Part shown: positions 5,193 through 27,540 of the stretch, piece after piece
Layout: the number at the start of each line of letters is the position of its first letter
Position numbering within the stretch: the stretch's first letter is position 1
Assembly (NCBI RefSeq): GCF_013167455.1
Contig: NZ_CP038328.1
Direction: 5' to 3' (one strand)
DNA from: Escherichia coli O157:H7
GTDB lineage: Bacteria > Pseudomonadota > Gammaproteobacteria > Enterobacterales > Enterobacteriaceae
Length of the DNA stretch: 64,000 nucleotides
Position numbers and translations under genes: made by a program
The notes under the pieces: generated by a model
The model's input: the letters and a program-made list of their open reading frames with translations, nothing else
What the model was told of the DNA's origin: nothing
Database searches by the model: none

Positions 5193-7675
5193 AACTCAGT
5201 CGTCGTAGCTTTATGAAAGCTAACGCCGTTGCGGCCGCTGCGGCGGCTGCCGGTCTCAGCGTGCCGGGCGTTGCCCGCGCCGTTGTTGGTCAGCAGGAAG
5301 CCATTAAATGGGATAAAGCGCCGTGCCGTTTCTGCGGTACTGGTTGCGGCGTTCTGGTCGGAACGCAGCAGGGGCGTGTGGTGGCCTGTCAGGGCGACCC
5401 GGACGCACCGGTTAACCGTGGCCTGAACTGCATTAAGGGCTATTTCCTGCCCAAGATCATGTACGGTAAAGACCGTTTGACGCAGCCGCTGCTGCGTATG
5501 AAAAACGGTAAATATGACAAAGAAGGCGAATTTACCCCAATCACCTGGGATCAGGCCTTCGATGTGATGGAAGAGAAATTCAAAACCGCCCTGAAAGAAA
5601 AAGGGCCGGAATCGATCGGTATGTTCGGTTCTGGTCAGTGGACTATCTGGGAAGGTTATGCCGCGTCCAAGCTGTTTAAAGCGGGCTTCCGTTCGAACAA
5701 CATCGACCCGAATGCGCGTCACTGTATGGCGTCGGCAGTAGTTGGCTTTATGCGAACCTTTGGTATGGATGAGCCGATGGGCTGCTATGACGACATCGAG
5801 CAGGCTGACGCGTTTGTGCTGTGGGGCGCAAACATGGCGGAGATGCACCCGATCCTCTGGTCACGCATCACTAACCGTCGTCTCTCTAACCAGGACGTCA
5901 CCGTGGCGGTGCTTTCAACCTACCAGCATCGTAGCTTCGAGCTGGCGGATAACGGCATCATCTTTACGCCGCAATCTGACCTGGTGATCCTGAACTACAT
6001 CGCCAACTATATCATTCAAAACAATGCGATAAATCAGGACTTCTTCAGCAAGCACGTTAACCTGCGCAAAGGGGCGACGGACATCGGCTACGGTTTACGT
6101 CCGACCCATCCGCTGGAAAAAGCAGCGAAGAATCCGGGTTCTGACGCCTCCGAACCGATGAGCTTTGAAGATTACAAAGCCTTCGTTGCTGAGTATACGC
6201 TGGAAAAAACCGCTGAAATGACTGGCGTACCAAAAGATCAGCTGGAACAACTGGCGCAGCTGTATGCCGATCCGAACAAGAAAGTCATCTCCTACTGGAC
6301 GATGGGCTTCAACCAGCATACTCGTGGCGTGTGGGCCAACAACCTGGTCTACAACCTGCACCTGCTGACCGGCAAAATTTCCCAGCCGGGTTGCGGTCCG
6401 TTCTCCCTGACCGGGCAGCCTTCCGCGTGTGGTACTGCGCGTGAAGTGGGCACCTTTGCTCACCGTCTGCCTGCGGACATGGTGGTAACTAACGAGAAAC
6501 ATCGTGATATCTGCGAGAAGAAGTGGAATATCCCGAGCGGCACCATTCCGGCGAAAATCGGTCTGCATGCGGTAGCACAAGACCGTGCGCTGAAAGACGG
6601 CAAGCTGAATGTTTACTGGACCATGTGTACCAACAACATGCAGGCCGGGCCGAACATTAATGAAGAGCGTATGCCGGGCTGGCGCGATCCGCGCAACTTC
6701 ATCATCGTCTCCGATCCGTATCCGACAGTCAGTGCGCTGGCCGCCGACTTGATCCTGCCGACCGCAATGTGGGTAGAAAAAGAGGGGGCTTACGGTAACG
6801 CCGAACGCCGTACTCAGTTCTGGCGTCAGCAGGTACAGGCGCCAGGCGAAGCGAAATCGGACCTCTGGCAGTTAGTCCAGTTCTCCCGCCGCTTCAAAAC
6901 TGAAGAAGTATGGCCGGAAGAGCTGCTGGCGAAGAAACCGGAACTGCGTGGCAAAACGCTGTACGAAGTTCTGTATGCCACCCCCGAAGTGAGCAAATTC
7001 CCGGTATCCGAACTGGCGGAAGATCAGCTGAACGATGAATCCCGCGAGCTGGGCTTCTATCTGCAAAAAGGGCTGTTCGAAGAGTACGCATGGTTTGGTC
7101 GCGGTCACGGTCACGATCTCGCGCCGTTCGATGACTACCACAAAGCGCGCGGTCTGCGCTGGCCGGTGGTGAACGGTAAAGAAACGCAGTGGCGTTACAG
7201 CGAAGGTAACGACCCGTACGTGAAAGCGGGCGAAGGCTATAAGTTCTACGGTAAACCGGATGGTAAAGCGGTGATCTTCGCGCTGCCGTTCGAACCGGCG
7301 GCGGAAGCACCGGATGAAGAGTACGACCTGTGGCTCTCTACCGGACGCGTCCTGGAGCACTGGCACACCGGCAGTATGACTCGCCGTGTGCCGGAACTGC
7401 ACCGTGCCTTCCCGGAAGCGGTCCTGTTTATTCACCCGCTGGATGCGAAAGCGCGCGATCTGCGCCGTGGCGACAAAGTGAAAGTGGTTTCTCGCCGTGG
7501 CGAAGTGATCTCGATTGTCGAAACGCGCGGTCGTAACCGTCCGCCGCAGGGCCTGGTGTACATGCCGTTCTTCGACGCCGCACAGCTGGTTAACAAACTA
7601 ACGCTGGACGCGACCGATCCGCTCTCGAAAGAGACGGACTTCAAGAAGTGCGCGGTCAAACTGGAGAAGGTGTAA
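5189..7675 (+). CDS. napA: periplasmic nitrate reductase catalytic subunit NapA
   Basis: 828 aa. Twin-arginine signal [11 protein letters not shown]-terminal 4Fe-4S motif CRFCGTGCG, molybdopterin oxidoreductase architecture. Confidence 0.95.
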
Positions 7676-17585: not shown

Positions 17586-20177
17586 ATGCATCAATCTGGT
17601 TCTGTTTCTCTTTGTCGTTCCGCAATATCTGTTCTGGTAGCTACAGCGTTATATTCACCCATAGCATTGGCATCAACAGTTGAGTATGGTGAGACAGTTG
17701 ATGGTGTTGTCCTGGAAAAAGATATCCAGCTGGTTTATGGGACCGCCAATAATACGAAAATCAATCCTGGCGGAGAACAGCATATTAAAGAATTTGGTAT
17801 AAGTAGTAATACTGAAATTAACGGCGGGTATCAGTACATTGAAATGAATGGCACCGCAGAATACTCAGTATTAAATGATGGTTATCAAATTGTTCAAATG
17901 GGTGGCGCGGCAAACCAGACTACGCTCAATAATGGTGTGCTACAGGTTTATGGCGCAGCGAATGATCCCACGATTAAAGGCGGGCGCTTAATCGTTGAAA
18001 AAGATGGGATTACCGTCCTTGCCGCTATCGAAAAGGGAGGATTACTGGAGGTTAAAGAGGGGGGATTAGCGATTGCGGTAGATCAGAAAGCAGGCGGTGC
18101 TATTAAAGCAAGCACGCGGGTCATGGAGGTATTCGGAACAAACCGTCTCGGTCAGTTCGAAATCAAGAATGGTATTGCTAACAATATGCTGTTGGAAAAC
18201 GGCGGAAGTTTGCGAGTTGAAGAAAATGACTTCGCTTATAATACTACTGTAGATAGTGGCGGCTTACTGGAGGTTATGGATGGCGGGACTGCAACTGGCG
18301 TTGATAAAAAAGCAGGCGGAAAATTAATTGTCTCAACGAATGCGCTGGAAGTGAGTGGTACAAACAGTAAAGGCCAATTTAGTATAAAAGATGGTGTGTC
18401 AAAAAATTATGAACTGGATGATGGTTCCGGGCTTATTGTTATGGAGGACACGCAGGCCATTGACACTATCCTCGATGAGCATGCCACTATGCAATCGCTG
18501 GGAAAGGATACTGGTACGAGAGTGCAGGCAAATGCGGTATATGATCTCGGTCGATCAGATCAGAATGGAAGTATAACGTATTCCTCTAAAGCCATCTCTG
18601 AAAATATGGTTATCAACAATGGCCGCGCTAACGTCTGGGCTGGCACAATGGTTAACGTGTCAGTCAGAGGAAATGATGGCATTCTTGAGGTTATGAAGCC
18701 GCAAATAAATTATGCACCCGCAATGTTGGTGGGTAAGGTAGTGGTTTCTGAGGGCGCTTCTTTAAGAACGCATGGTGCCGTGGATACCAGCAAAGCGGAT
18801 GTTTCGCTCGAAAATAGCGCATGGACCATCATTGCCGATATCACTACGACGAACCAAAACACCCGCCTTAACTTAGCCAACCTTGCGATGTCTGGCGCAA
18901 ATGTGATTATGATGGATGAGTCAGTGACTCGTTCATCTGTGACGGCAAGTGCGGAAAATTTCACTACGTTGACCACCAATACCCTGTCGGGAAACGGCAA
19001 TTTTTATATGCGTACCGATATGGCGAATCATCAGAGCGATCAGCTCAACGTCACCGGTCAGGCAACAGGTGATTTCAAAATATTCGTGACGGACACCGGT
19101 GCCAGCCCGGCAGCAGGAGATAGCCTTACACTGGTAACAACGGGCGGCGGTGATGCTGCATTTACGTTGGGCAATGCCGGAGGCGTTGTTGATATCGGTA
19201 CGTATGAATATACCTTGCTGGATAATGGTAACCATAGCTGGAGTCTGGCAGAGAATCGCGCGCAAATTACCCCTTCAACCACTGATGTGCTGAATATGGC
19301 GGCCGCACAACCGCTGGTATTTGATGCAGAACTGGACACCGTGCGTGAGCGTCTTGGTAGCGTAAAAGGCGTTAGTTACGATACGGCGATGTGGAGTTCG
19401 GCAATTAACACCCGCAACAACGTGACCACTGATGCGGGAGCTGGTTTTGAGCAAACATTGACGGGCCTGACGCTCGGTATCGATAGCCGTTTCTCCCGTG
19501 AAGAAAGCAGCACAATTCGCGGCTTGTTCTTTGGTTACTCTCATTCTGATATTGGTTTTGATCGCGGCGGCAAAGGCAATGTCGATAGCTATACCCTGGG
19601 GGCTTATGCCGGTTGGGAGCATCAGAACGGTGCCTATGTTGATGGAGTGGTGAAAGTTGACCGTTTTGCCAACACCATCCATGGCAAGATGAGTAATGGG
19701 GCAACAGCGTTTGGCGATTACAATAGTAACGGCGCGGGTGCTCATGTCGAGAGCGGGTTCCGTTGGGTTGACGGATTGTGGAGTGTTAGACCCTATCTGG
19801 CCTTTACCGGCTTTACCACAGATGGTCAGGACTACACGTTATCAAACGGCATGCGCGCGGATGTGGGAAATACCCGGATATTACGCGCTGAAGCGGGAAC
19901 GGCGGTAAGCTATCACATGGACCTGCAAAACGGTACGACGCTGGAACCCTGGCTGAAAGCCGCCGTGCGTCAGGAATACGCCGATTCTAACCAGGTGAAA
20001 GTTAATGACGATGGCAAATTTAATAATGATGTGGCTGGAACCCGTGGCGTTTATCAGGCTGGGATAAGGTCATCGTTTACCCCGACGTTAAGCGGTCATT
20101 TGTCAGTCAGCTATGGCAATGGCGCAGGGGTAGAATCGCCGTGGAATACCCAGGCGGGTGTGGTCTGGACGTTCTGA
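17586..20177 (+). CDS. yejO: autotransporter (AIDA/pertactin-like passenger plus beta-barrel), intact YejO
   Basis: 863 aa. Signal peptide, repetitive Gly/Asn-rich passenger with two ~80-aa tandem repeats (GGLLEV..GG.A..VD.KAGG), and a C-terminal beta-barrel ending in ...GVVWTF. Confidence 0.85.
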   Translation: MHQSGSVSLCRSAISVLVATALYSPIALASTVEYGETVDGVVLEKDIQLVYGTANNTKINPGGEQHIKEFGISSNTEINGGYQYIEMNGTAEYSVLNDGYQIVQMGGAANQTTLNNGVLQVYGAANDPTIKGGRLIVEKDGITVLAAIEKGGLLEVKEGGLAIAVDQKAGGAIKASTRVMEVFGTNRLGQFEIKNGIANNMLLENGGSLRVEENDFAYNTTVDSGGLLEVMDGGTATGVDKKAGGKLIVSTNALEVSGTNSKGQFSIKDGVSKNYELDDGSGLIVMEDTQAIDTILDEHATMQSLGKDTGTRVQANAVYDLGRSDQNGSITYSSKAISENMVINNGRANVWAGTMVNVSVRGNDGILEVMKPQINYAPAMLVGKVVVSEGASLRTHGAVDTSKADVSLENSAWTIIADITTTNQNTRLNLANLAMSGANVIMMDESVTRSSVTASAENFTTLTTNTLSGNGNFYMRTDMANHQSDQLNVTGQATGDFKIFVTDTGASPAAGDSLTLVTTGGGDAAFTLGNAGGVVDIGTYEYTLLDNGNHSWSLAENRAQITPSTTDVLNMAAAQPLVFDAELDTVRERLGSVKGVSYDTAMWSSAINTRNNVTTDAGAGFEQTLTGLTLGIDSRFSREESSTIRGLFFGYSHSDIGFDRGGKGNVDSYTLGAYAGWEHQNGAYVDGVVKVDRFANTIHGKMSNGATAFGDYNSNGAGAHVESGFRWVDGLWSVRPYLAFTGFTTDGQDYTLSNGMRADVGNTRILRAEAGTAVSYHMDLQNGTTLEPWLKAAVRQEYADSNQVKVNDDGKFNNDVAGTRGVYQAGIRSSFTPTLSGHLSVSYGNGAGVESPWNTQAGVVWTF

Positions 20178-20238: not shown

Positions 20239-20270
20239 AAAAAAACCAACCTTTACGGTTGGTTTTTTTG
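20239..20270. terminator. hairpin with A/T runs abutting attL (likely the ancestral proL terminator and yejO terminator)
   Basis: AAAAAACCAACC-ttta-cGGTTGGTTTTTTT sits 5 bp from the left direct repeat. Confidence 0.75.
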
Positions 20271-20275
20271 GGATT

Positions 20276-20292
20276 TTTGGTCGGCACGAGAG
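20276..20292. repeat. attL core (direct repeat of the tRNA-Pro 3' end)
   Basis: TTTGGTCGGCACGAGAG is identical to 29850-29866. Confidence 0.9.
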
Positions 20293-20353
20293 TAGTTTAA
20301 TTGAGTATGTAACTACATGATTTTAAATAATATGCTTGATTCAACTTTTAAAC

Positions 20354-20377
20354 CGTATAACTAAACGTATAACTAAA
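20354..20377 (+). promoter_or_regulatory. two tandem 12-bp arm-type repeats CGTATAACTAAA
   Basis: The same 12-mer occurs four more times at 29665-29720 next to the integrase gene. Typical arrangement for integrase arm-binding sites. Confidence 0.65.
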
Positions 20378-20559
20378 ATCATTTGCTGAAAAAGTGTACA
20401 ATTTAAATGCGAGTTTTCCTGTGGTAAAAGCTCCAACCGTAACGATGTTCGTTATGGTTGCCTTGATGGTCTGCGTGGTCATTATGACCATTCAGGATTT
20501 GAAGGGTGACGCTTCCGACTTCCTCAAATTGAGGTTTCCGAAAATATCAGCGGGTTAGG

Positions 20560-20633
20560 CCAGAGTGCAAATTTGCACTCTGGAACAATTCCAACCAGTA
20601 ATCAGCGCAATTTTGCGCTTTGCTTTAAGTTCA
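20560..20633. repeat. noncoding module A: 24-bp perfect palindrome plus conserved 28-mer
   Basis: CCAGAGTGCAAATTTGCACTCTGG at 20560-20583, then CGCAATTTTGCGCTTTGCTTTAAGTTCA at 20606-20633. The 28-mer is identical to 20825-20852. Confidence 0.8.
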
Positions 20634-20791
20634 GCGAGTAACCGAAGGCGGAATTACGCCCTCGGTACTCACATATGAGAAACGATATTTCTTCCACCGA
20701 TACCCTTTATTTGGGTATCGCGAGTAAGCCCCAAAATCTGGGTGTTACTCTTACTACCCAAACTACGGGTATTTTCCGTAATTTCATGGTC

Positions 20792-20852
20792 GAGTTGCAG
20801 ATCTGCAACTCACCCACCAGCCAACGCAATTTTGCGCTTTGCTTTAAGTTCA
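20792..20852. repeat. noncoding module B: 20-bp perfect palindrome plus conserved 28-mer
   Basis: GAGTTGCAGATCTGCAACTC at 20792-20811, then the 28-mer at 20825-20852. Same order as module A, 219 bp away. Confidence 0.8.
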
Positions 20853-20857
20853 ACCAG

Positions 20858-21139
20858 TTACCGCCGTAACCGCTCCGGCTTCTTCCAGTGGTACGTAATT
20901 TTTGCTTTTTCCCTGTACGTCTGCACGCGGCGACGGTAGGCCAGCATTTCAAGAACGCGGATCCGTATGTTGCGCATATCAACGCCATTAAGTTCTATAC
21001 CATCACGGCGCATCACCTCAGCAACCACACGCGCGTAATTTTCGGCGGTCACGCTGTACGGCTGCGCGGTTTTTTCGTCAGCCTGCTGGCTGATTCCGGC
21101 GACGCGGCGGATTAATCCCAGTATTTCGGCTTCTGTCAT
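20858..21139 (-). CDS. hypothetical protein (93 aa), last gene of the satellite late operon
   Basis: ATG preceded by GGTGGAG. Follows the capsid-like gene. I recognise no motif. Confidence 0.6.
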   Translation of the reverse strand: MTEAEILGLIRRVAGISQQADEKTAQPYSVTAENYARVVAEVMRRDGIELNGVDMRNIRIRVLEMLAYRRRVQTYREKAKITYHWKKPERLRR

Positions 21140-21180: not shown

Positions 21181-22158
21181 TTATCCCGATACGGGGATCA
21201 CCATATCGGGATTGATGCCGGAAAAATCAGCTTTCGCCAGAACGGTGACGGCCTTATCGAGTTTTTGCCATCCGCAATAGGTGATTGCCCTGAACGCTGT
21301 AGCGTCATTCTGGAAAAGGCTAACCGCCCCTGATTCGGTTTTTATTACCGCCTCATCAGTTGGGGTTATAACCGTGGCTTCAACGTTAATAATCAGCTTT
21401 TGAGCGTCTATCAGCATCATGCGATCCGCCTGTTCGCTCACAATTACCGGTATTCTCAAAAGCTCTATCTGCCAGAACTCAGCATCAGTAAGCTGTAATG
21501 CGTTTTCTACGGGCAAGATTAGCGACGACGTGGAAAGCGTGTTACCGTTCGCTATGTGCTTTTTGAAAAGCTCTATGAAGTTTTCGGCCTCATCAGCACC
21601 ATTAAGCACGCCCTCAGGGGATACGCCAGCCACCTCCTGATCACTGGAAAGAAATTTTTTATCTATTTCTTTCACCGATTCCGATGTGATCAAGTCTCTG
21701 ATCGCTGAATTGGTGCCAGGGGTGCTAAATTTGATTAGCTCGTTATTCAGCATCACAATAGCGCCAAGTTTGCACAGTTTTAGCGCGCTTTCGTTTACTT
21801 CTCCCTCTTTGACAGGGATTTCTTCTGCTTCTTTAAGCCATTTACTACCCTTGCCTGATATTGACTGCAATTTTGCGCCAAACGGAAGATTAAGCGCGCT
21901 GCTGATTAGCTTGCCTGGTACAGACTGCGAAAAAATATATTCTCCAAGCTCTCTTACTATCGGCTCTGCCACCAGCGACGGCATATTATCCGTAGTCATT
22001 CCGGCAATAATGGATTTTTCAAGAAATTTCGATACTGCCGGATCATTTCTTTTCGTCATCTCTATAGCGTCTGCATGGCTGAATTTACACGATGTAAGCA
22101 CGCTGGCGGCGCGAACTGCCGAAACGCCTTTCATGTTTTTAGAAATCATCTTCTTCAT
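21181..22158 (-). CDS. HK97-fold major capsid protein homolog (Phage_capsid-like), lone copy
   Basis: 325 aa. The pattern ...W..E.EEIPV....ES.L...KLGAIV.L.NEL......IRDLI......D..FL......P.G.LNG ... IPVIVSE......LID..... ...LFQNDATAFRA... matches my recollection of the PF05065/HK97 gp5 family layout. Confidence 0.7.
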   Translation of the reverse strand: MKKMISKNMKGVSAVRAASVLTSCKFSHADAIEMTKRNDPAVSKFLEKSIIAGMTTDNMPSLVAEPIVRELGEYIFSQSVPGKLISSALNLPFGAKLQSISGKGSKWLKEAEEIPVKEGEVNESALKLCKLGAIVMLNNELIKFSTPGTNSAIRDLITSESVKEIDKKFLSSDQEVAGVSPEGVLNGADEAENFIELFKKHIANGNTLSTSSLILPVENALQLTDAEFWQIELLRIPVIVSEQADRMMLIDAQKLIINVEATVITPTDEAVIKTESGAVSLFQNDATAFRAITYCGWQKLDKAVTVLAKADFSGINPDMVIPVSG

Positions 22159-22300
22159 CCTCCTGGAAGCACGGGTTTAGTGTTTCGTGAAAATATGGCA
22201 TCAGAACAGCGGCGGCCTGTAACCGTATTTCGGTCGGCTGCTGCTTGTCGTTCATGATTTCCGTGAGTACATCAATAGGGTCTGTGATGTATTCGCTCAT
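22139..22300 (-). CDS. small protein (53 aa) with TerS C-terminal-like helix
   Basis: Not in the track (under 60 aa). ATG at 22300 with GAGG 9 nt upstream. Overlaps the capsid-like start. The motif IRLQAAAVLMPYFH resembles, from memory, a conserved C-terminal segment of small terminase proteins. Confidence 0.5.
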   Translation of the reverse strand: MSEYITDPIDVLTEIMNDKQQPTEIRLQAAAVLMPYFHETLNPCFQEDEEDDF

Positions 22301-22311
22301 AGTTCGCTACC

Positions 22312-22800
22312 TCAGTGTTTTAAGTCTGTTGGTGGCTTAGGGATGGGGAACCGATTTGAGTAGACACTAGCGGCATTGAGTTTTTTAACCTCTTTTTTCC
22401 CAATGCTGCCGATCTTGCGGTGGGTGAACTGGGCCAGCTTAAACGCGGCATCTAAAGCCAGTTTTGGATCTGTGTCCATGTTGTCAATCAGTATCCTGCC
22501 CATTGCTTTGATGGGGTCGGGTAGGCCGTTATCCATCATCTCAATGGTGTTAATTGATGCCCGTTCCGGTGTAACTTTTTCGGTAACTTTCTTTGTAACT
22601 TTTTTCGGTTTTGTAACCTGAAAAGTTACATCAGAAGTTACAGCCTTAAGATACTTTTTCACCTCAGGATCGTTGGATAGCTGCCAGCCTTTAACCCTTG
22701 CGGTCTTTTCGCTGTATCCAGCATGTATAGCGGCTTCCGTGGGATTTGCGCCCCTTGATAACGCATCAGCAAACCGCTTTTTTTTGGTCGTTAATGCCAT
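22312..22800 (-). CDS. terminase small subunit-like protein (Terminase_2-type N-terminal HTH)
   Basis: I chose the internal start MALTTKKKRFADALSRGANPTEAAIHAGYSEKTARVKGWQL (162 aa) with GAGG upstream. The N-terminus fits the TerS HTH pattern L..K...F......N...AA..AGYS..TA. Contains a KKVT repeat tract. Confidence 0.75.
   Translation of the reverse strand: MALTTKKKRFADALSRGANPTEAAIHAGYSEKTARVKGWQLSNDPEVKKYLKAVTSDVTFQVTKPKKVTKKVTEKVTPERASINTIEMMDNGLPDPIKAMGRILIDNMDTDPKLALDAAFKLAQFTHRKIGSIGKKEVKKLNAASVYSNRFPIPKPPTDLKH
22571..22641. repeat. array of GTAACTTT motifs (four direct, two inverted) inside the TerS-like gene
   Basis: GTAAC at 22571, 22583, 22595 (12-bp phasing) and 22613. Inverted GTTAC at 22625 and 22637. 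Confidence 0.8.
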
Positions 22801-22824
22801 GCAAAAACCTCGTTTTGAGGGGGT

Positions 22825-22845
22825 GTAACTTTTCGTGTAACTTTT
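22825..22845. repeat. two more GTAACTTTT motifs, 12 bp apart, in the 5' UTR of the TerS-like gene
   Basis: GTGTAACTTTT at 22823 and 22835. Noncoding, 25-45 bp upstream of the ATG at 22800. Confidence 0.8.
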
Positions 22846-22927
22846 TTGAAAAGCAAAATTTTCTACGAATGAGACGGGGGGCGGTGTCCAGGGCGATCGA
22901 CTTTCCGGCCGGAACACTCCCCCCCTG

Positions 22928-23089
22928 TCATTGCTCACCGAGTAACGAGATCAGGCCTTCAACTTCATCACTCAGCTTGTTTATTCGTGTCTCAAGCTCT
23001 GCGATCTTTTCCATCAATGGCGCTATGGTGTCTCTTGTTTCCTCGCCAATGGCTTTAATGATGCTTGCCTCGCGTTCTGTGATAGCCAT
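22928..23089 (-). CDS. small coiled-coil protein (53 aa), hypothetical
   Basis: Not in the track. ATG at 23089, sequence MAITEREASIIKAIGEETRDTIAPLMEKIAELETRINKLSDEVEGLISLLGEQ. Starts 4 bp after the stop of the preceding ORF. Confidence 0.45.
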   Translation of the reverse strand: MAITEREASIIKAIGEETRDTIAPLMEKIAELETRINKLSDEVEGLISLLGEQ

Positions 23090-23092
23090 TGT

Positions 23093-23287
23093 TTACGCCT
23101 CACTTGTTGCAATGCCCAGGCGTTCGCGTAACAGTACGCGCGCAAGATGCCCTATTGTTGGTGTTGCCGCCCTGCCGTAGATACCTGATTCATTCATCCG
23201 GCGCACAATATCGAACTGCAACTTTTTAAGCTCGTTAAGGATTTCATGATCAATCATCACGGTAGCGCTTTGCTTTATCTCTTCCAC
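23093..23287 (-). CDS. small ribbon-helix-helix-like protein (64 aa), first gene of the late operon
   Basis: GTG start with GGAG 8 nt upstream. Beta-strand TVMID followed by two helices (HEILNELKKLQFDIVRR; TIGHLARVLLRERL), suggesting an RHH fold. Confidence 0.5.
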   Translation of the reverse strand: MEEIKQSATVMIDHEILNELKKLQFDIVRRMNESGIYGRAATPTIGHLARVLLRERLGIATSEA

Positions 23288-23375: not shown

Positions 23376-23399
23376 AAAAAAAGCCGGATTGCTCCGGCT
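23376..23399 (-). terminator. rho-independent terminator ending the replication operon
   Basis: On the minus strand, AGCCGGA-GCAA-TCCGGCT followed by TTTTTTT. Confidence 0.8.
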
Positions 23400-23702: not shown

Positions 23703-23931
23703 CTTCACCTGTTCACCTTTTGATATTTTATCTTTTAATTCATAATGTTAAGGGGTGAACAGTTTCACAAAAACTATTCACCAACTATTCACCACTGTTC
23801 ACCCTTGAAGCTCAATAAACAATCAAAAAGGTGAACAGTGAATAGTTTGGTGAACAGTTCATAAATAACTGTTCACCCTATAATATACTGATATAAAAGA
23901 TATTTATGACAGGGTGAACAGTGGTGAACAG
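23703..23931. promoter_or_regulatory. replication origin: about 11 iterons CTGTTCACC/GGTGAACAG flanking an AT-rich core
   Basis: Iterons at 23709, 23754, 23774, 23785, 23795, 23830, 23849, 23869, 23913 and 23923, plus degenerate copies. AT-rich stretch at 23880-23910. Immediately downstream of the primase-helicase gene. Confidence 0.8.
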
Positions 23932-23944
23932 TTATTCCATAAGT

Positions 23945-25762
23945 TTAATTTTTGCTATCGTCATTAGTGACCGATACACATGACGGCATCCAGTCTTCTG
24001 ATTCCTCCGTCAGTGTCACGTTTGAACGCAAACCGTGCTTCGTTTTCCGTTTCATATACTCCCTGCCATATTCCGCCATTGCCCCCGGCATATCTTTACC
24101 GAAGCGCGTCAGTGTTACAGGTTTACCGAATCCGTGTGCCCTCATATATGCCAGATAGGCGTGATAAAGATACCTGCGCGGACTGAACGGAATAATTTCG
24201 GCATTACCCACTAACAGACCATCACACATTACCGACGACATGAGATAGCCGCAGAAGTCCACCAGCGAATCGCCCTCGCGTTTTATCACCAGAGCTTCTT
24301 CTGATTTCTGCTGCTCATACAGCAGGCGTTTAGCTTCGTCCTGGTCAGAAAAACGAGTAAGCAGGTGGCGAATCACAACCGCCAGCTCTCCTTCTATTTT
24401 TTCTGCCAGCATGGGGTCGCGTTCGTTTTCCGGTACAACCTCCGAAAAATTGAATATCACCCGACGACGTGAAATCCCCCCGCTGCGGTCACTGAATGAC
24501 ATGGCGTTATTGTTCACCGCCAACACTACCGCCTGAATGCGTGTTGAGTAGGGGGCTTTATGCTTCGGGTCGATTGCCACCTTGTCACCGCCTGTAATGG
24601 CCTTAATTCCTGCGCCATCACCAGCGTAACGGGTCATATCCGGCATGATAATCAGCGAAAAGCCAACCACTAACGCGCGTTCCCTGGCATCTTCCAGCGC
24701 CTTCATGCTTGCCGATACCGTGTTGGCCTTACCCGCCAGCATGGTGCAAATCTCCGCCATCACGCTTTTACCACTTCCCCCTGGACCTGTTACCTCAATG
24801 AATAACTGCCAGTCGTACCGGTTCGCCAGCACCATGAATAATGCAGCCAGTACGCGATCCGCCTTGCGGTCATTCTCAGCCACCGAACGGCGTAACCACT
24901 TCCAGAAATTCGGCGCATGTGTTGCCAGCGTTTCCCCCTCTGCTGGTGGGCTGAAAGGTAATTCACTGGCAATTAACAACCAGTCGTTTTTGTTATGCTC
25001 CCGAAAATCGCCTGTCCGGGTATCAAAAACACCGTTACTGAATCCAATCAGGTTACGGGCTGTATTCCCCATTACAGGCAAACTTAACTTCATGGTATCG
25101 ACCGCCGATTTAATGGCGTTCTGCGAATAGCTGATCTCCGCATCAATGAAAATCTGTGCCATAGCTCGCTGTAATTCTTTATCCTGTACTGGCTCCCATA
25201 CAACGCCGTTGTAATAGTGAACAGTGTCAGAGTCAGCATGAATCGCCAGTTCACCGCCATAATGTGCCAGGAGAACTTCGCCGCGTTGACTTGCTCCCAT
25301 CTGGTTAAGCGCCAGTGATGAAGCGTTATCGTCTTTTACCCGCTCTTTTTTCTTTACAGGCAGTTCAACTACCTTTTTCTTTTCCGCCTGCTCTGCCCGT
25401 TCACGTTCCAGATATTCGCGCCAGTTCTCCCGTTTCTGGCTGTGCATTCCTTCAGGGTAATAATCAGCATCCCTGACACCTGCCGCTGCCAGTTTCTGCC
25501 CGATGGTATTAACAAGCCCCGAACGCAATAACCCCGCCTGATAGAGACGCACGCGATAGCGTCCGTCCGGTACGATTTGCAGGTTGTCCAGTTCGGCAAG
25601 TTGTTGCTCTCCAAGCCAGACAGGTGGCACGTTATCGCCAGCCAGTCGCCCGTCCTGTTCCTGCCACTGCTTCGCATGTGCCCACGCATCACTACCCGCA
25701 AAAATGATGACTTCCGTCATTTTGTCACGTGGCTGGTGTTTTAAATTTGGCGCTTTTTTCAT
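23945..25762 (-). CDS. P4 alpha-like / D5-type SF3 primase-helicase (pri-rep)
   Basis: 605 aa from the ATG at 25762 (GGAGAG upstream; ATGA overlap with the upstream ORF stop). Walker A GPGGSGKS, D5_N-like region and P4-family primase C-terminal pattern. Confidence 0.8.
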   Translation of the reverse strand: MKKAPNLKHQPRDKMTEVIIFAGSDAWAHAKQWQEQDGRLAGDNVPPVWLGEQQLAELDNLQIVPDGRYRVRLYQAGLLRSGLVNTIGQKLAAAGVRDADYYPEGMHSQKRENWREYLERERAEQAEKKKVVELPVKKKERVKDDNASSLALNQMGASQRGEVLLAHYGGELAIHADSDTVHYYNGVVWEPVQDKELQRAMAQIFIDAEISYSQNAIKSAVDTMKLSLPVMGNTARNLIGFSNGVFDTRTGDFREHNKNDWLLIASELPFSPPAEGETLATHAPNFWKWLRRSVAENDRKADRVLAALFMVLANRYDWQLFIEVTGPGGSGKSVMAEICTMLAGKANTVSASMKALEDARERALVVGFSLIIMPDMTRYAGDGAGIKAITGGDKVAIDPKHKAPYSTRIQAVVLAVNNNAMSFSDRSGGISRRRVIFNFSEVVPENERDPMLAEKIEGELAVVIRHLLTRFSDQDEAKRLLYEQQKSEEALVIKREGDSLVDFCGYLMSSVMCDGLLVGNAEIIPFSPRRYLYHAYLAYMRAHGFGKPVTLTRFGKDMPGAMAEYGREYMKRKTKHGLRSNVTLTEESEDWMPSCVSVTNDDSKN

Positions 25763-26058
25763 TTCTGCTCTCTCCACGCGGCAATCATGTTTTTCAGTTC
25801 CTGTAGTTTTTTATCAACATCCATACATGGCACATGGTTATTTCTGGAAGGCGGGATTTCCCGCCTGAATCTGCTAATAAAGATCTCCACGTTCAGCGAA
25901 CTATGAAATGAATAGCCATCACGAATAAAATACACACGGTCAAACATCAGTTCTTTTACCGTTACTCTGTTACCGTTCTTATCCAGATAAATAGCGCCGG
26001 GGATAATTTTTGGGTGTGCATAACCGCTGGCAGTCAAGCCAGATAAATATGTTCTCAT
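25759..26058 (-). CDS. hypothetical protein (99 aa), DUF4222-like pattern
   Basis: AIYLDKNGNRVTVKELMFDRVYFIRDGY fits, from memory, the Y.D..G..V.V....V.F.R.GY pattern of small enterobacterial prophage proteins. Translationally coupled to pri-rep. Confidence 0.55.
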   Translation of the reverse strand: MRTYLSGLTASGYAHPKIIPGAIYLDKNGNRVTVKELMFDRVYFIRDGYSFHSSLNVEIFISRFRREIPPSRNNHVPCMDVDKKLQELKNMIAAWREQK

Positions 26059-26064
26059 GATTAT

Positions 26065-26385
26065 TTATCCCCGATTTGAATCAGTATTCGCTTTCTTTAT
26101 GGCATTTAATGCATCTGTGGCATTTTCAATGGTGCACCGTAACGAAATATTAAACTGTCCAAGCATTGCCAGTAACAAACCGATATTACCCATATCAATG
26201 CGCATGACCTTTTCGTCATAGTCCTCATTTTCTGACGCATGCCACATCAGGCTACCAATTGACGCAACAGCCATTGATATATTGTCAGTAGCCCCATCCG
26301 CAGCGGAATAAACCTTTTTAGCAATATCATGCTCACAGTTAAAATGCGGATTAATCAGGTACTGGTAATTTGACATATCAGGCAT
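26065..26385 (-). CDS. hypothetical protein (106 aa)
   Basis: I chose the internal start MPDMSNYQ. Its ATG overlaps the stop of the Icd-like ORF (ATGCCTGA). Occupies the position P4 gives to cnr, between the immunity region and alpha. This is positional only. Confidence 0.55.
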   Translation of the reverse strand: MPDMSNYQYLINPHFNCEHDIAKKVYSAADGATDNISMAVASIGSLMWHASENEDYDEKVMRIDMGNIGLLLAMLGQFNISLRCTIENATDALNAIKKANTDSNRG

Positions 26386-26566
26386 GGCACACCCCCTGAC
26401 GAATACGGGCGGCGAATACAGCAACACAACCGGACGGGCAACGGCTACGCGCTTCGCGTTCCGTCCAGGCGGTTACGTGGATGATTTGATGTTCTGACGC
26501 GCCAAAGATGATAAAGCGCCAGAGAAAGGCGGTTTGAGAATGTACAAGGGTAGGGATAGTAGCCAT
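26378..26566 (-). CDS. Icd-like (host cell division inhibitor family) small protein, 62 aa
   Basis: Start MATIPTLVHSQTAFLWRF...TEREARSR with a strong SD GAGGAGG. The sequence pattern is recalled from Icd-like proteins annotated in P4-like islands. Confidence 0.65.
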   Translation of the reverse strand: MATIPTLVHSQTAFLWRFIIFGASEHQIIHVTAWTEREARSRCPSGCVAVFAARIRQGVCHA

Positions 26567-26935
26567 GTTGGCAGCCTCCTCAGTGTGGTTAAGATAACCG
26601 CCACCGGAAACGCCAATTTCGCTGGTGGCGGACTGTACAGGGTTGGCGTAACCGGACACTGAAGAAACCGGCGCGGATTGCTCCGCCCCCGTACAGCCCA
26701 CCATTGATAAGGTGTGACTATGCGGCACAAAAAAACACGCGGGGCGCGTGTTATGCGCTTCAGTTTTGCCCAGGACGCCAATCCCGGCACCCGTTTTATG
26801 AGGTGCGCGGGAATCATAGCTATTTTCGACACTGGCGATCAACTGGTTTTTTTCTCCGATATTCAGGGCCAGAAAACGCCACACAAAGGCCGTTTGTGTG
26901 TGTACAAGGTGTGGTATATGATTTACGGCAACCAT
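26378..26935 (-). CDS. upstream Icd-like paralog ORF (start 26935) that stays in frame through the terminator, the RNA and the second Icd-like ORF
   Basis: AGGAG SD plus ATG at 26935. The N-terminus MVAVNHIPHLVHTQTAFVWRF parallels the 62-aa ORF. There is no stop until 26378. Whether the long product is made is doubtful. Confidence 0.3.
   Translation of the reverse strand: MVAVNHIPHLVHTQTAFVWRFLALNIGEKNQLIASVENSYDSRAPHKTGAGIGVLGKTEAHNTRPACFFVPHSHTLSMVGCTGAEQSAPVSSVSGYANPVQSATSEIGVSGGGYLNHTEEAANMATIPTLVHSQTAFLWRFIIFGASEHQIIHVTAWTEREARSRCPSGCVAVFAARIRQGVCHA
26623..26702 (-). ncRNA. candidate C4/CI-type antisense immunity RNA (tRNA-like, RNase P-substrate-like)
   Basis: On the minus strand, a 16-bp closing helix GGUGGGCUGUACGGGG/CCCUGUACAGUCCGCC has 3 G-U pairs that would be A-C mismatches on the other strand. 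It is followed by 3' ACCA. Inside are a GCAA-tetraloop hairpin and a 5-bp hairpin whose 12-nt loop UUUCUUCAGUGU is complementary to the downstream SD region. Confidence 0.55.
26729..26751 (-). terminator. rho-independent terminator upstream of the candidate RNA
   Basis: On the minus strand, ACACGCG-CCC-CGCGUGU followed by UUUUUUU. Confidence 0.75.
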
Positions 26936-27008
26936 AACGGCTCCTAGTTTACGTTGTTGGTTAGAAGCCCTGCGAGTGGTAACGACACTTGCGGGGCTTT
27001 GTCTTTTC
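26929..27008 (+). ncRNA. candidate cis-antisense sRNA covering the SD/start of the upstream Icd-like ORF
   Basis: Promoter-like TTGTGT-17-TATGAT at 26894-26922. A strand-specific 14-bp hairpin at 26965-26999 has 2 G-U pairs on the plus strand only and is followed by UGUCUUUUC. Confidence 0.3.
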
Positions 27009-27026
27009 ATCGATTACCTTGATAAA

Positions 27027-27309: not shown

Positions 27310-27366
27310 TCACTATCAGCGCCGTGGTGTGAGGTATTACGGCGCATTGCTATGCAGGACAACACA

Positions 27367-27540
27367 ATGACCGATAAAGAATTGACCAAAACATTATCAC
27401 CGGCACGGAAAAGACGGCGCAGAAAGATAGAGCATGAATCAGAAAGATTCGCACCATGTGCTTTTGCCCTTGAGCAATTCCTTAAAGAGTACAGGGAAAA
27501 GCGCTCATTGCAGGTATGGCAACGAACTGAACCAGACTGA
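27367..27540 (+). CDS. small arginine-rich protein (57 aa), hypothetical
   Basis: I prefer the second ATG because AGGA lies 7 nt upstream. Contains SPARKRRRRKIEHESER. Co-oriented with the RHH gene and followed by a terminator. Confidence 0.45.
   Translation: MTDKELTKTLSPARKRRRRKIEHESERFAPCAFALEQFLKEYREKRSLQVWQRTEPD

Follow-up and report, generated by a model that had tools for sequence, protein, structure and literature searches.

A satellite-specific capsid homolog in an EcCI11128-type island of Escherichia coli O157:H7 and its probable helper phages

We analyzed a 64,000-nucleotide (nt) stretch of Escherichia coli O157:H7 DNA (contig NZ_CP038328.1 of assembly GCF_013167455.1; hereafter the window) that contains an open reading frame (ORF) of 325 amino acids (aa), which an earlier note made from the sequence alone had proposed as a lone capsid homolog with a possible role in capsid remodelling or interference. 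This ORF and an overlapping 53-aa ORF form the 3′ end of a 9.6-kb island (the distance between its attachment, att, repeats), which by site and gene content is a Type-A Gram-negative phage-inducible chromosomal island (PICI) of the EcCI11128 type at tRNA-Pro, a kind already published. Because the gene belongs to the recognized core components of PICIs and shares 98% identity with that of a published reference island, the capsid finding adds little as a discovery. The new lead is a probable class of helper phages, together with a module of cos-like element, small terminase subunit (TerS), miniature TerS-like protein and capsid homolog that can be considered as a unit.

A capsid homolog of a satellite-specific lineage

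The packaging end of the island contains the following features:

21181–22158, minus strand: capsid homolog, the PICI "capsid morphogenesis" gene (325 aa; Pfam, PHROG, AlphaFold2 and Foldseek)
22139–22300, minus strand: 53-aa ORF, predicted TerS-hairpin paralog (PHROG 641, hhalign and AlphaFold2)
22312–22803, minus strand: terS (162 aa from the start used in relatives by the Prokaryotic Genome Annotation Pipeline, PGAP; Pfam Terminase_2 and PHROG 641)
22571–22644, minus strand: cluster of AAAGTTAC/GTAAC repeats within terS, with a 12-nt phase; candidate TerS-binding (cosB-like or pac-like) sites
22825–22844, minus strand: two more AAAGTTAC repeats, in the stretch that separates the cos-like core from the terS start
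22850–22935, minus strand: cos-like non-coding element (G7 run ... ACCGCCCCCC ... CTCTCA ... AGAAAA)

Sequence and structure comparisons both placed the 325-aa protein among major capsid proteins. It scored 28.4 bits against PF05065 (Phage_capsid; cutoff 24.2) over residues 103–303, a span that includes the LFQNDATAFRA segment in which a PF05065-type layout had been recognized, and it matched the PHROG major-head families 617 (E = 2e-10) and 10 (E = 2e-8). The NCBIfam model TIGR01554, at 26.5 against a cutoff of 27.5, fell just short and was not counted as evidence of membership. An AlphaFold2 model built on a 48-sequence alignment (predicted local distance difference test score, pLDDT, 83.6; predicted template modelling score, pTM, 0.82) displayed about 84 N-terminal residues as short helices, a lower-confidence E-loop, a spine helix at residues 147–169 and the strands of the P- and A-domains. 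Foldseek returned 253 matches in the PDB at E ≤ 1e-3, and the best 50 of the 253 were all capsid or encapsulin shells; Bxb1 ranked first (E = 1.5e-11), followed by phage 80alpha and Staphylococcus aureus pathogenicity island (SaPI) 1, the SaPIbov5 procapsid, T5, HK97 and encapsulins. The earlier note had named a predicted structure lacking the HK97 fold as grounds for abandoning its proposal; the prediction returned that fold, and the model indicates that the ORF is a real HK97-fold major-capsid homolog.

The alignment to phage proteins delimits which part of a capsid precursor is represented. Residues 10–316 aligned at 25% identity to residues 291–638 only of a 645-aa phage polyprotein that joins Peptidase_S78 (residues 48–153) to Phage_capsid (residues 386–635). 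Since the satellite protein starts at about helper residue 291, past the protease and the scaffold, it corresponds to the shell module alone, consistent with the suggested lack of a long delta or scaffold domain. An exhaustive search yielded 569 relatives at E ≤ 1e-3, of which about a dozen are close short forms of 311–332 aa; the others are mostly ~450 aa (scaffold–capsid) or ~640–740 aa (Peptidase_S78– or ClpP–capsid fusions). Relatives were counted by alignment-based and exhaustive representative searches, a word-indexed search having given 8 matches. Pfam and PHROG scans of the island ORFs found no portal, protease, connector, large terminase subunit (TerL), tail or lysis gene, which bears out the view that no other head gene accompanies the capsid homolog and that the element is not a full capsid-forming PICI (cf-PICI).

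Satellite capsids from Escherichia, Hafnia, Serratia and Arsenophonus share 45–50% identity with one another but 25–26% with helper capsids, even when the comparison is with the capsid of the embedding prophage (26%). The ratio of nonsynonymous to synonymous substitution (dN/dS) of the satellite capsid was 0.10–0.16 in unsaturated comparisons. These three observations therefore point to an old, selected, satellite-specific lineage; judged from sequence divergence, the capsid gene as a lineage is neither a recent capture nor a decaying remnant.

The allele in the window is longer than the canonical 307 aa of its family, for two reasons. An in-frame ATG lies upstream of the equivalent of Met4, where homologs begin, and the true start is probably Met4 at 22149. 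The 53-aa ORF, to which the earlier note had described the gene as translationally coupled, is overlapped by 20 nt with the 325-aa ORF, or by 11 nt with the Met4 start. At the other end, a 1-nt deletion in the A-run at 21232–21234 (A3 for A4) shifts the frame at the last codon and turns ...AKS* into ...AKADFSGINPDMVIPVSG*, adding 16 non-canonical C-terminal residues; this tail has low pLDDT in the AlphaFold2 model. Among the matches listed from 219 E. coli carriers of the module, all span 1121 nt against the 1120-nt query, and none has the deletion. Either a real mutation or an error in sequencing the homopolymer could account for it.

The island agrees with published Gram-negative PICIs in having a terminal integrase with a specific att site that prophages do not use, a primase followed by an iteron origin, TerS together with a capsid-morphogenesis gene, unidirectional genes and a length of 9.6 kb (about 8–12 kb being expected). 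PICIs with a matching att core, EcCI11128 among them, are recorded at the yejM–luxR site (Fillol-Salom et al. 2018, PMC6092414 Table S1). In the RefSeq record of strain 11128, EcCI11128 carries terS, an identical 53-aa ORF and a "phage major capsid protein" whose sequence is identical to the capsid homolog at 301 of 307 positions (98%). EcCI11128 and EcCI11368.1 share with the window island the insertion site (tRNA-Pro, between yejM and yejO/narP), the integrase family and the module of terS, 53-aa ORF and capsid gene. The window island differs from EcCI11128 in having a D5/P4-type primase instead of a RepA-family helicase, an extra 93-aa terminal gene and a capsid allele frameshifted at its last codon. 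This exchange of replication modules (23945–25777 here against 5719–7119 of locus L011) also divides other genomes: the D5/P4-type primase occurs here and in the relative L001, and the RepA-family helicase in EcCI11128 and many Shiga toxin-producing E. coli (STEC).

A "capsid morphogenesis" gene is among the PICI core components used by SatelliteFinder (PMC10085698), and elements with all five core components are mostly from E. coli (de Sousa et al., PMC10085698). SaPIbov5 Ccm is not the sole precedent that it had been taken for, as 21 of 29 reference Gram-negative PICIs carry a capsid gene (Mageeney et al. 2023, PMC10111431). A 2081-nt query covering the module matched 1210 of 5,426 complete E. 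coli genomes, 219 of them at ≥80% coverage and with 95–99% identity over TerS, the 53-aa ORF and the capsid gene; among the matches listed, most of the others contain the 93-aa gene only, and the carriers of the module are mostly O26, O111 and O157 STEC. A literature search on EcCI11128 and other named relatives, and on a link between PICIs and Shiga toxin (Stx) phage helpers, found no functional study.

The packaging module and its probable helper class

The island TerS has an N-terminal helix-turn-helix (HTH) domain and matched Pfam Terminase_2 (E = 2.6e-10) and PHROG 641 (E = 3.6e-43). It is 47% identical to the TerS of Stx1_14040, the likeness being closest in the C-terminal third. Six of the window's seven AAAGTTAC matches fall within 275 nt, where 1.8 would be expected across the entire 64 kb, and the AAAGTTAC/GTAAC repeats within terS encode a KKVT repeat linker. 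At the equivalent place the helper-type phage has five copies of GTTAAC; the island has two copies of AAAGTTAC and the phased cluster inside terS. The cos-like element, in turn, matched phage DNA (82% over 56 nt in a local blastn comparison, E = 6e-7) and in phages sits between an HNH gene and terS, the same position as in the island. It could be aligned across the island, two phages and three other satellites, and is kept in Hafnia, Arsenophonus and Serratia satellites; a fixed-spacing pattern matched the Serratia loci only, because the spacing varies. The layout suggests a shared cosN next to an element-specific cosB.

Searches with the separate parts of the module led to the same phages. 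The cos-like element occurs in only 78 of 50,697 phage records, almost all of them Stx-converting phages and essentially the same set as the capsid relatives. The phage collection held 112 records with a capsid homolog match, and the E. coli phages among the capsid relatives are Stx1a-, Stx2-, Stx2a- and Stx2c-converting phages and PPompW-type phages. The head module of this class, found in lambdoid phages, reads HNH–TerS–TerL–(S78 protease:capsid fusion)–portal. As the capsid homolog, TerS and the cos-like element all match this small set, one helper class is indicated, and sequence similarity makes lambdoid S78:capsid phages, largely Stx-converting, the probable helpers.

Related satellites have been caught inside such phages. 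A single metagenomic prophage (ENA ERZ15232907 NODE_13; loci L007, 1–13400, and L008, 1–14100) holds two satellites, each bearing the triad of TerS, small ORF and capsid gene; one insertion splits TerL into residues 1–91 and 102–553, and the other splits the S78:capsid gene into parts of 224 and 431 aa. Both satellites encode the same 322-aa capsid paralog. On an Arsenophonus contig an S78:capsid–portal module follows directly downstream of the triad. A helper-type head gene is present in 1,250 of the 5,426 E. coli genomes (23%), with up to seven copies in STEC.

The 53-aa ORF proved to be TerS-like, as had been suspected from a helix resembling the C-terminus of TerS, but its proposed role as a split piece of terminase did not hold, because an intact 162-aa TerS is encoded immediately upstream. 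Profile comparisons identify it instead as an extra paralog of the central helical hairpin of TerS, kept in every related satellite examined. It matched PHROG 641 with E = 1e-6, and hhalign placed it on TerS residues 108–148 with 97.2% probability (E = 4e-11); BLASTP against either TerS gave no match, so the relationship is seen by profile methods only. AlphaFold2 predicted a helix at residues 8–17, a turn, a second helix at residues 23–41 and a disordered acidic tail. The family motif is DP..L..IMN......R..AA..L..Y.H, and the protein lacks both the HTH domain of TerS and its GKK...F..PP..KH tail on the TerL side. TerS, an ORF of 50–54 aa and a capsid gene of 311–325 aa are syntenic in seven of seven loci examined, from four genera, and dN/dS of the small ORF is 0.18–0.22.

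By analogy with Ppi or Rpp, the protein may act in terminase assembly or interference, a reasonable suggestion though a weak one, and it might also be a mini-scaffold for the adjoining capsid protein. All members of the 53-aa family score higher against the bona fide prophage TerS of L007 than against their own satellite TerS (75 against 45 for the embedded pair at L007), a pattern that hints at a decoy mimicking helper TerS. The hint is weak, because the preference for helper over own TerS fails for the E. coli island when the helper is of the Stx1 type (30 against 37 for its own TerS).

Proposed capsid size redirection and competing explanations

Our best explanation, which we hold with about even confidence, is that this capsid gene of an EcCI11128-type PICI acts through Ccm-like co-assembly and size redirection on S78:capsid helpers. 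Induction of the helper would lead to excision of the island and to its replication from its own primase and iterons. The island TerS would bind the satellite-specific AAAGTTAC repeats beside a cos-like core common to the helper, and its helper-like C-terminus would recruit the TerL and HNH proteins of the helper. The satellite capsid paralog, which has neither scaffold nor protease, would co-assemble with the helper polyprotein as the sole source of both functions, giving a smaller mixed shell that could hold one or two 9.6-kb genomes and would be too small for the ~50–60-kb helper. The co-translated 53-aa TerS-hairpin paralog would probably modulate terminase assembly in a Ppi- or Rpp-like manner. 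The outcome would be interference with the helper and transfer of the satellite, as with Ccm for SaPIbov5. The steps that we infer in this scheme are those of TerS, the capsid and the 53-aa protein.

With dN/dS of about 0.1, co-assembly with size redirection on the model of Ccm is what we infer as the best account of the capsid homolog, and remodelling or interference of this sort is the default hypothesis of the field for this gene class (PMC6092414, PMC10085698). Ccm forms the pentamers of T=4 SaPIbov5 shells (PMC8569155), and PmCI172, which has a capsid homolog, makes small capsids (PMC6092414). Scaling by volume from a ~50-kb T=7 head, we estimate that a T=4 shell would hold ~20 kb (two island copies) and a T=3 shell ~14 kb. 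More tentatively, and with a likelihood that we place well below even, EcCI11128-type PICIs might be dedicated parasites of Stx-converting and related S78-fusion phages, which they would exploit through cosB-like repeats and TerS, the mini-TerS hairpin and a capsid paralog making small satellite-only capsids.

Comparison with characterized satellites shows how far the Ccm parallel extends. Like Ccm, the window protein is a solitary HK97-fold paralog of a helper capsid in a satellite with a cos or cos-like site (PMC5052747; PMC8569155), its N-terminal domain is shorter than that of the helper protein (Ccm delta 1–87 against CP delta 1–128), and the helper packaging module includes an HNH protein. 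The likeness extends to the fold, as seen in the Foldseek match to the SaPIbov5 procapsid, and stops short of sequence: a PDB sequence profile search at E ≤ 1 found the capsid proteins of 80alpha, Bxb1 and T5 and no SaPIbov5 (7rwz) chain. The parallel is therefore an analogy between proteins of independent origin. The systems also differ in that the helper capsid here is a protease:scaffold:capsid fusion and not a delta-domain capsid protein, that the window island encodes its own TerS, and that the function of Ccm has been demonstrated (pentamers in T=4 shells), whereas the window protein is known from its sequence and predicted fold.

Among Gram-negative PICIs, EcCICFT073 likewise has a lone capsid homolog, in its c1499/c1500 pair of lambda E- and D-like capsid and decoration genes; it is cos-type and Rpp-type, and its arrangement of a cosN in common with the helper and a differing cosB region can be likened to that of the window island. 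It differs in its lambda gpE-like capsid family, in its helpers (lambda and phi80), in having Rpp instead of a full TerS and in having an experimentally dispensable capsid gene and packaging in full-size heads. The late operon of pac-type SaPIs resembles the window module in joining the TerS of the satellite to a small accessory protein and a determinant of capsid size (TerS-S, Ppi and CpmA/CpmB). There, however, CpmA and CpmB are scaffold-like proteins instead of paralogs of the capsid, Ppi has no relationship to the 53-aa paralog, and packaging is by the headful, whereas the window island appears to be cos-type. The helper-embedded PICIs of Mageeney et al. (2023, PMC10111431) include relatives with the same capsid gene inside helper late genes (L007, L008 and probably L010); these target the TerL and S78:capsid fusion genes, whereas the window island sits at a chromosomal tRNA.

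Three further identities were considered and rejected on gene content in the Pfam and PHROG scans. A cf-PICI (Alqurainy et al. 2023) likewise has its own HK97-fold capsid protein and TerS but also encodes protease, portal, head–tail adaptor, connector and TerL, none of which was found in the window island. An encapsulin reading was set aside in the same way. A P4-like satellite was rejected since no sid, psu, delta or epsilon match was found; what P4 shares with the window island is limited to integrase, AlpA, a P4-family primase, an Icd/Ash region and C4 RNA.

Other functions of the capsid gene compete with co-assembly and size redirection. The paralog might serve interference only, as a dominant-negative subunit that poisons helper procapsids and protects the host population while full-size heads take up the island DNA as multimers. 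A satellite protein without protease and scaffold would suit this role, EcCICFT073 is indeed packaged in phage-sized capsids (PMC6092414), and purifying selection fits equally well; but the gene invariably accompanies terS and a cos-like site as part of a packaging module, and PmCI172 with its capsid homolog makes small capsids, and we regard interference alone as unlikely. Mageeney et al. proposed for helper-embedded PICIs that the capsid gene is a captured helper late gene that replaces the one broken by integration, and on this account it would be of little use, and dispensable, at a chromosomal site. The tolerated knock-out in EcCICFT073 (PMC10111431) and the related satellite inside a helper S78:capsid gene speak for such a back-up copy. 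Several observations make it less probable still: the satellite protein shares just 26% identity with the capsid whose place it would take and has neither the protease nor the scaffold of that capsid protein, the sister satellite that interrupts TerL brings the same capsid gene and no TerL gene, the lineage has been kept across genera with dN/dS of about 0.1, and the window island lies at a tRNA and not in a prophage.

It is slightly more doubtful again that the satellite protein forms a whole small shell by itself, with the helper supplying only portal, terminase and tails. Its predicted HK97 fold is complete, with a helical N-terminal region of ~80 residues, and encapsulin-like self-assembly is known for HK97-fold proteins, encapsulins being among the Foldseek matches. 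Yet protease, portal, connectors and TerL are all missing from the island, and the helper makes its protease as a covalent fusion with its capsid protein, so that the protease should enter a shell by co-assembly only. That the capsid gene of this strain is an inactive, functionless remnant strikes us as very improbable. The homopolymer deletion does alter the C-terminus and went unseen among the matches listed from the other E. coli carriers; against this, the reading frame shows no other damage, the gene has 98% identity to relatives, purifying selection acts on the family, and the deletion could be a sequencing error.

Several points weigh against co-assembly and size redirection on S78:capsid helpers. 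In published tests the TerS-encoding islands EcCIIHE3034 and EcCI18098 were not mobilized by resident prophages (PMC6092414). The only Gram-negative PICI capsid gene knocked out so far is c1499 of EcCICFT073: its deletion left lambda plaque formation abnormal with interference kept, and capsid deletion and insertion mutants still transferred, although this gene belongs to a different, lambda-E-like family (PMC6092414; PMC10111431). The T number is not predictable from sequence, the cos assignment was drawn solely from conservation and position, and the frameshifted C-terminus may impair the protein made by this allele. The hairpin of the E. coli 53-aa protein resembles that of Stx-type TerS weakly, and a different phage TerS scores better. 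Finally, co-occurrence of the island with helper-type genes is anecdotal, two accessions being shared among the matches listed, and the head gene is present in 23% of genomes anyway.

Naming a helper class makes the function testable, since the capsid gene, TerS and the cos-like element converge on it and related satellites are embedded in such prophages. No helper or capsid-gene function for TerS-encoding Gram-negative PICIs was reported in the literature searched. The candidate helpers largely bear Stx genes and the satellite occurs mainly in O26, O111 and O157 STEC genomes; if the island interferes with or rides on Stx phages, the yield and spread of toxin phages could be affected. Were the proposal true, it would be the first size redirection by a capsid paralog shown in Gram-negative bacteria and a natural brake on Stx-phage production in enterohaemorrhagic E. 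coli.

Other features of the island and its surroundings

The rest of the island and its borders comprise:

20269–20300, no strand: distal att repeat, an 81% copy of the tRNA-Pro 3′ end that pairs with 29843–29874; border on the yejO side
20353–20378, no strand: 26-nt perfect direct repeat CCGTATAACTAAACGTATAACTAAAA, partner at 29696–29721 (direct-repeat search)
20858–21139, minus strand: 93-aa ORF, last island gene (PHROG 1561, function not assigned, E = 3.9e-54)
22928–23287, minus strand: two small ORFs of 53 and 64 aa, kept upstream of terS in related satellites
23382–23399, minus strand: terminator-like hairpin followed by a T-run, separating the replication and packaging modules
23754–23942, no strand: GGTGAACAGT iterons directly downstream of the primase gene; putative replication origin
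23945–25777, minus strand: primase/helicase (D5_N, DUF5906, Pox_D5; P4-family primase)
26378–27010, minus strand: Ash/Icd-like region, where PGAP calls an Icd-like protein in the relative L001
26989–27309, plus strand: YlcI/YnfO-family gene
27352–27540, plus strand: 62-aa ORF
27689–27895, minus strand: AlpA-like regulator (68-aa ORF)
28392–29651, minus strand: tyrosine integrase (Arm-DNA-bind_3, Phage_int_M, Phage_integrase)
29852–29928, minus strand: tRNA-Pro(GGG), the integration target

Gene order runs from the integrase through the AlpA-like gene, the Ash/Icd region with C4 and isrK, a DUF4222 gene, the D5/P4-type primase and the GGTGAACAGT iterons to three small ORFs, TerS, the 53-aa ORF, the capsid homolog and the 93-aa ORF. 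The minus strand carries every gene but two small ORFs, which lie on the plus strand between alpA and the Ash/Icd region. The placement of the iterons agrees with the PICI origin rule of PMC6092414. The 68-aa ORF scored 17.9 bits against Pfam Phage_AlpA (E = 0.0028), below the cutoff of 21; its position and size fit, PGAP calls its homolog an HTH regulator, and the Hafnia homolog has PF05930. The 53-aa and 64-aa ORFs at 22928–23287 gave no family match in Pfam, PHROG and NCBIfam scans.

The borders are set by tRNA-Pro(GGG) at one end and the degenerate repeat of its 3′ end at the other. Just inside each end sits the 26-nt repeat, built from a pair of CGTATAACTAAA units. As a variant of the published att core, it resembles the reverse complement of TTTGTAGTTATACGTTTGTAGTTATACGG, which is given as the "att site core" of PICIs at the yejM–luxR site (PMC6092414 Table S1). 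Because the tRNA-derived repeat lies further outside, the 26-nt repeats may alternatively be arm-type sites of the integrase.

Homologs of the 93-aa gene are common as the terminal gene of E. coli PICIs, and the primer for ORF17 of EcCI18098 encodes the same C-terminus. The gene may correspond to the rdgR of the literature. A 53-nt direct repeat (83%; 20592–20644 and 20811–20863) duplicates the surroundings of the 3′ end of this gene and is possibly the leftover of a second, decayed satellite end.

Rfam models matched a C4 antisense RNA at 26621–26708 (minus strand, 77.6 bits) and isrK at 26730–26806 (minus strand, 66 bits), both inside the Ash/Icd-like region. These matches make the pair a P4/P1-style module for RNA immunity or regulation carried by a PICI. 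Between 20200 and 24000 not one sigma-70-like promoter match turned up, whereas shuffles gave 5.9 ± 2.1. Speculatively, this absence and the hairpin ahead of the packaging genes would fit late expression that depends on read-through or antitermination. Beyond the distal border, the autotransporter gene yejO (17586–20177, plus strand) adjoins the island as an intact 863-aa ORF; in both related genomes inspected it is annotated as a pseudogene with an internal stop or frameshift.

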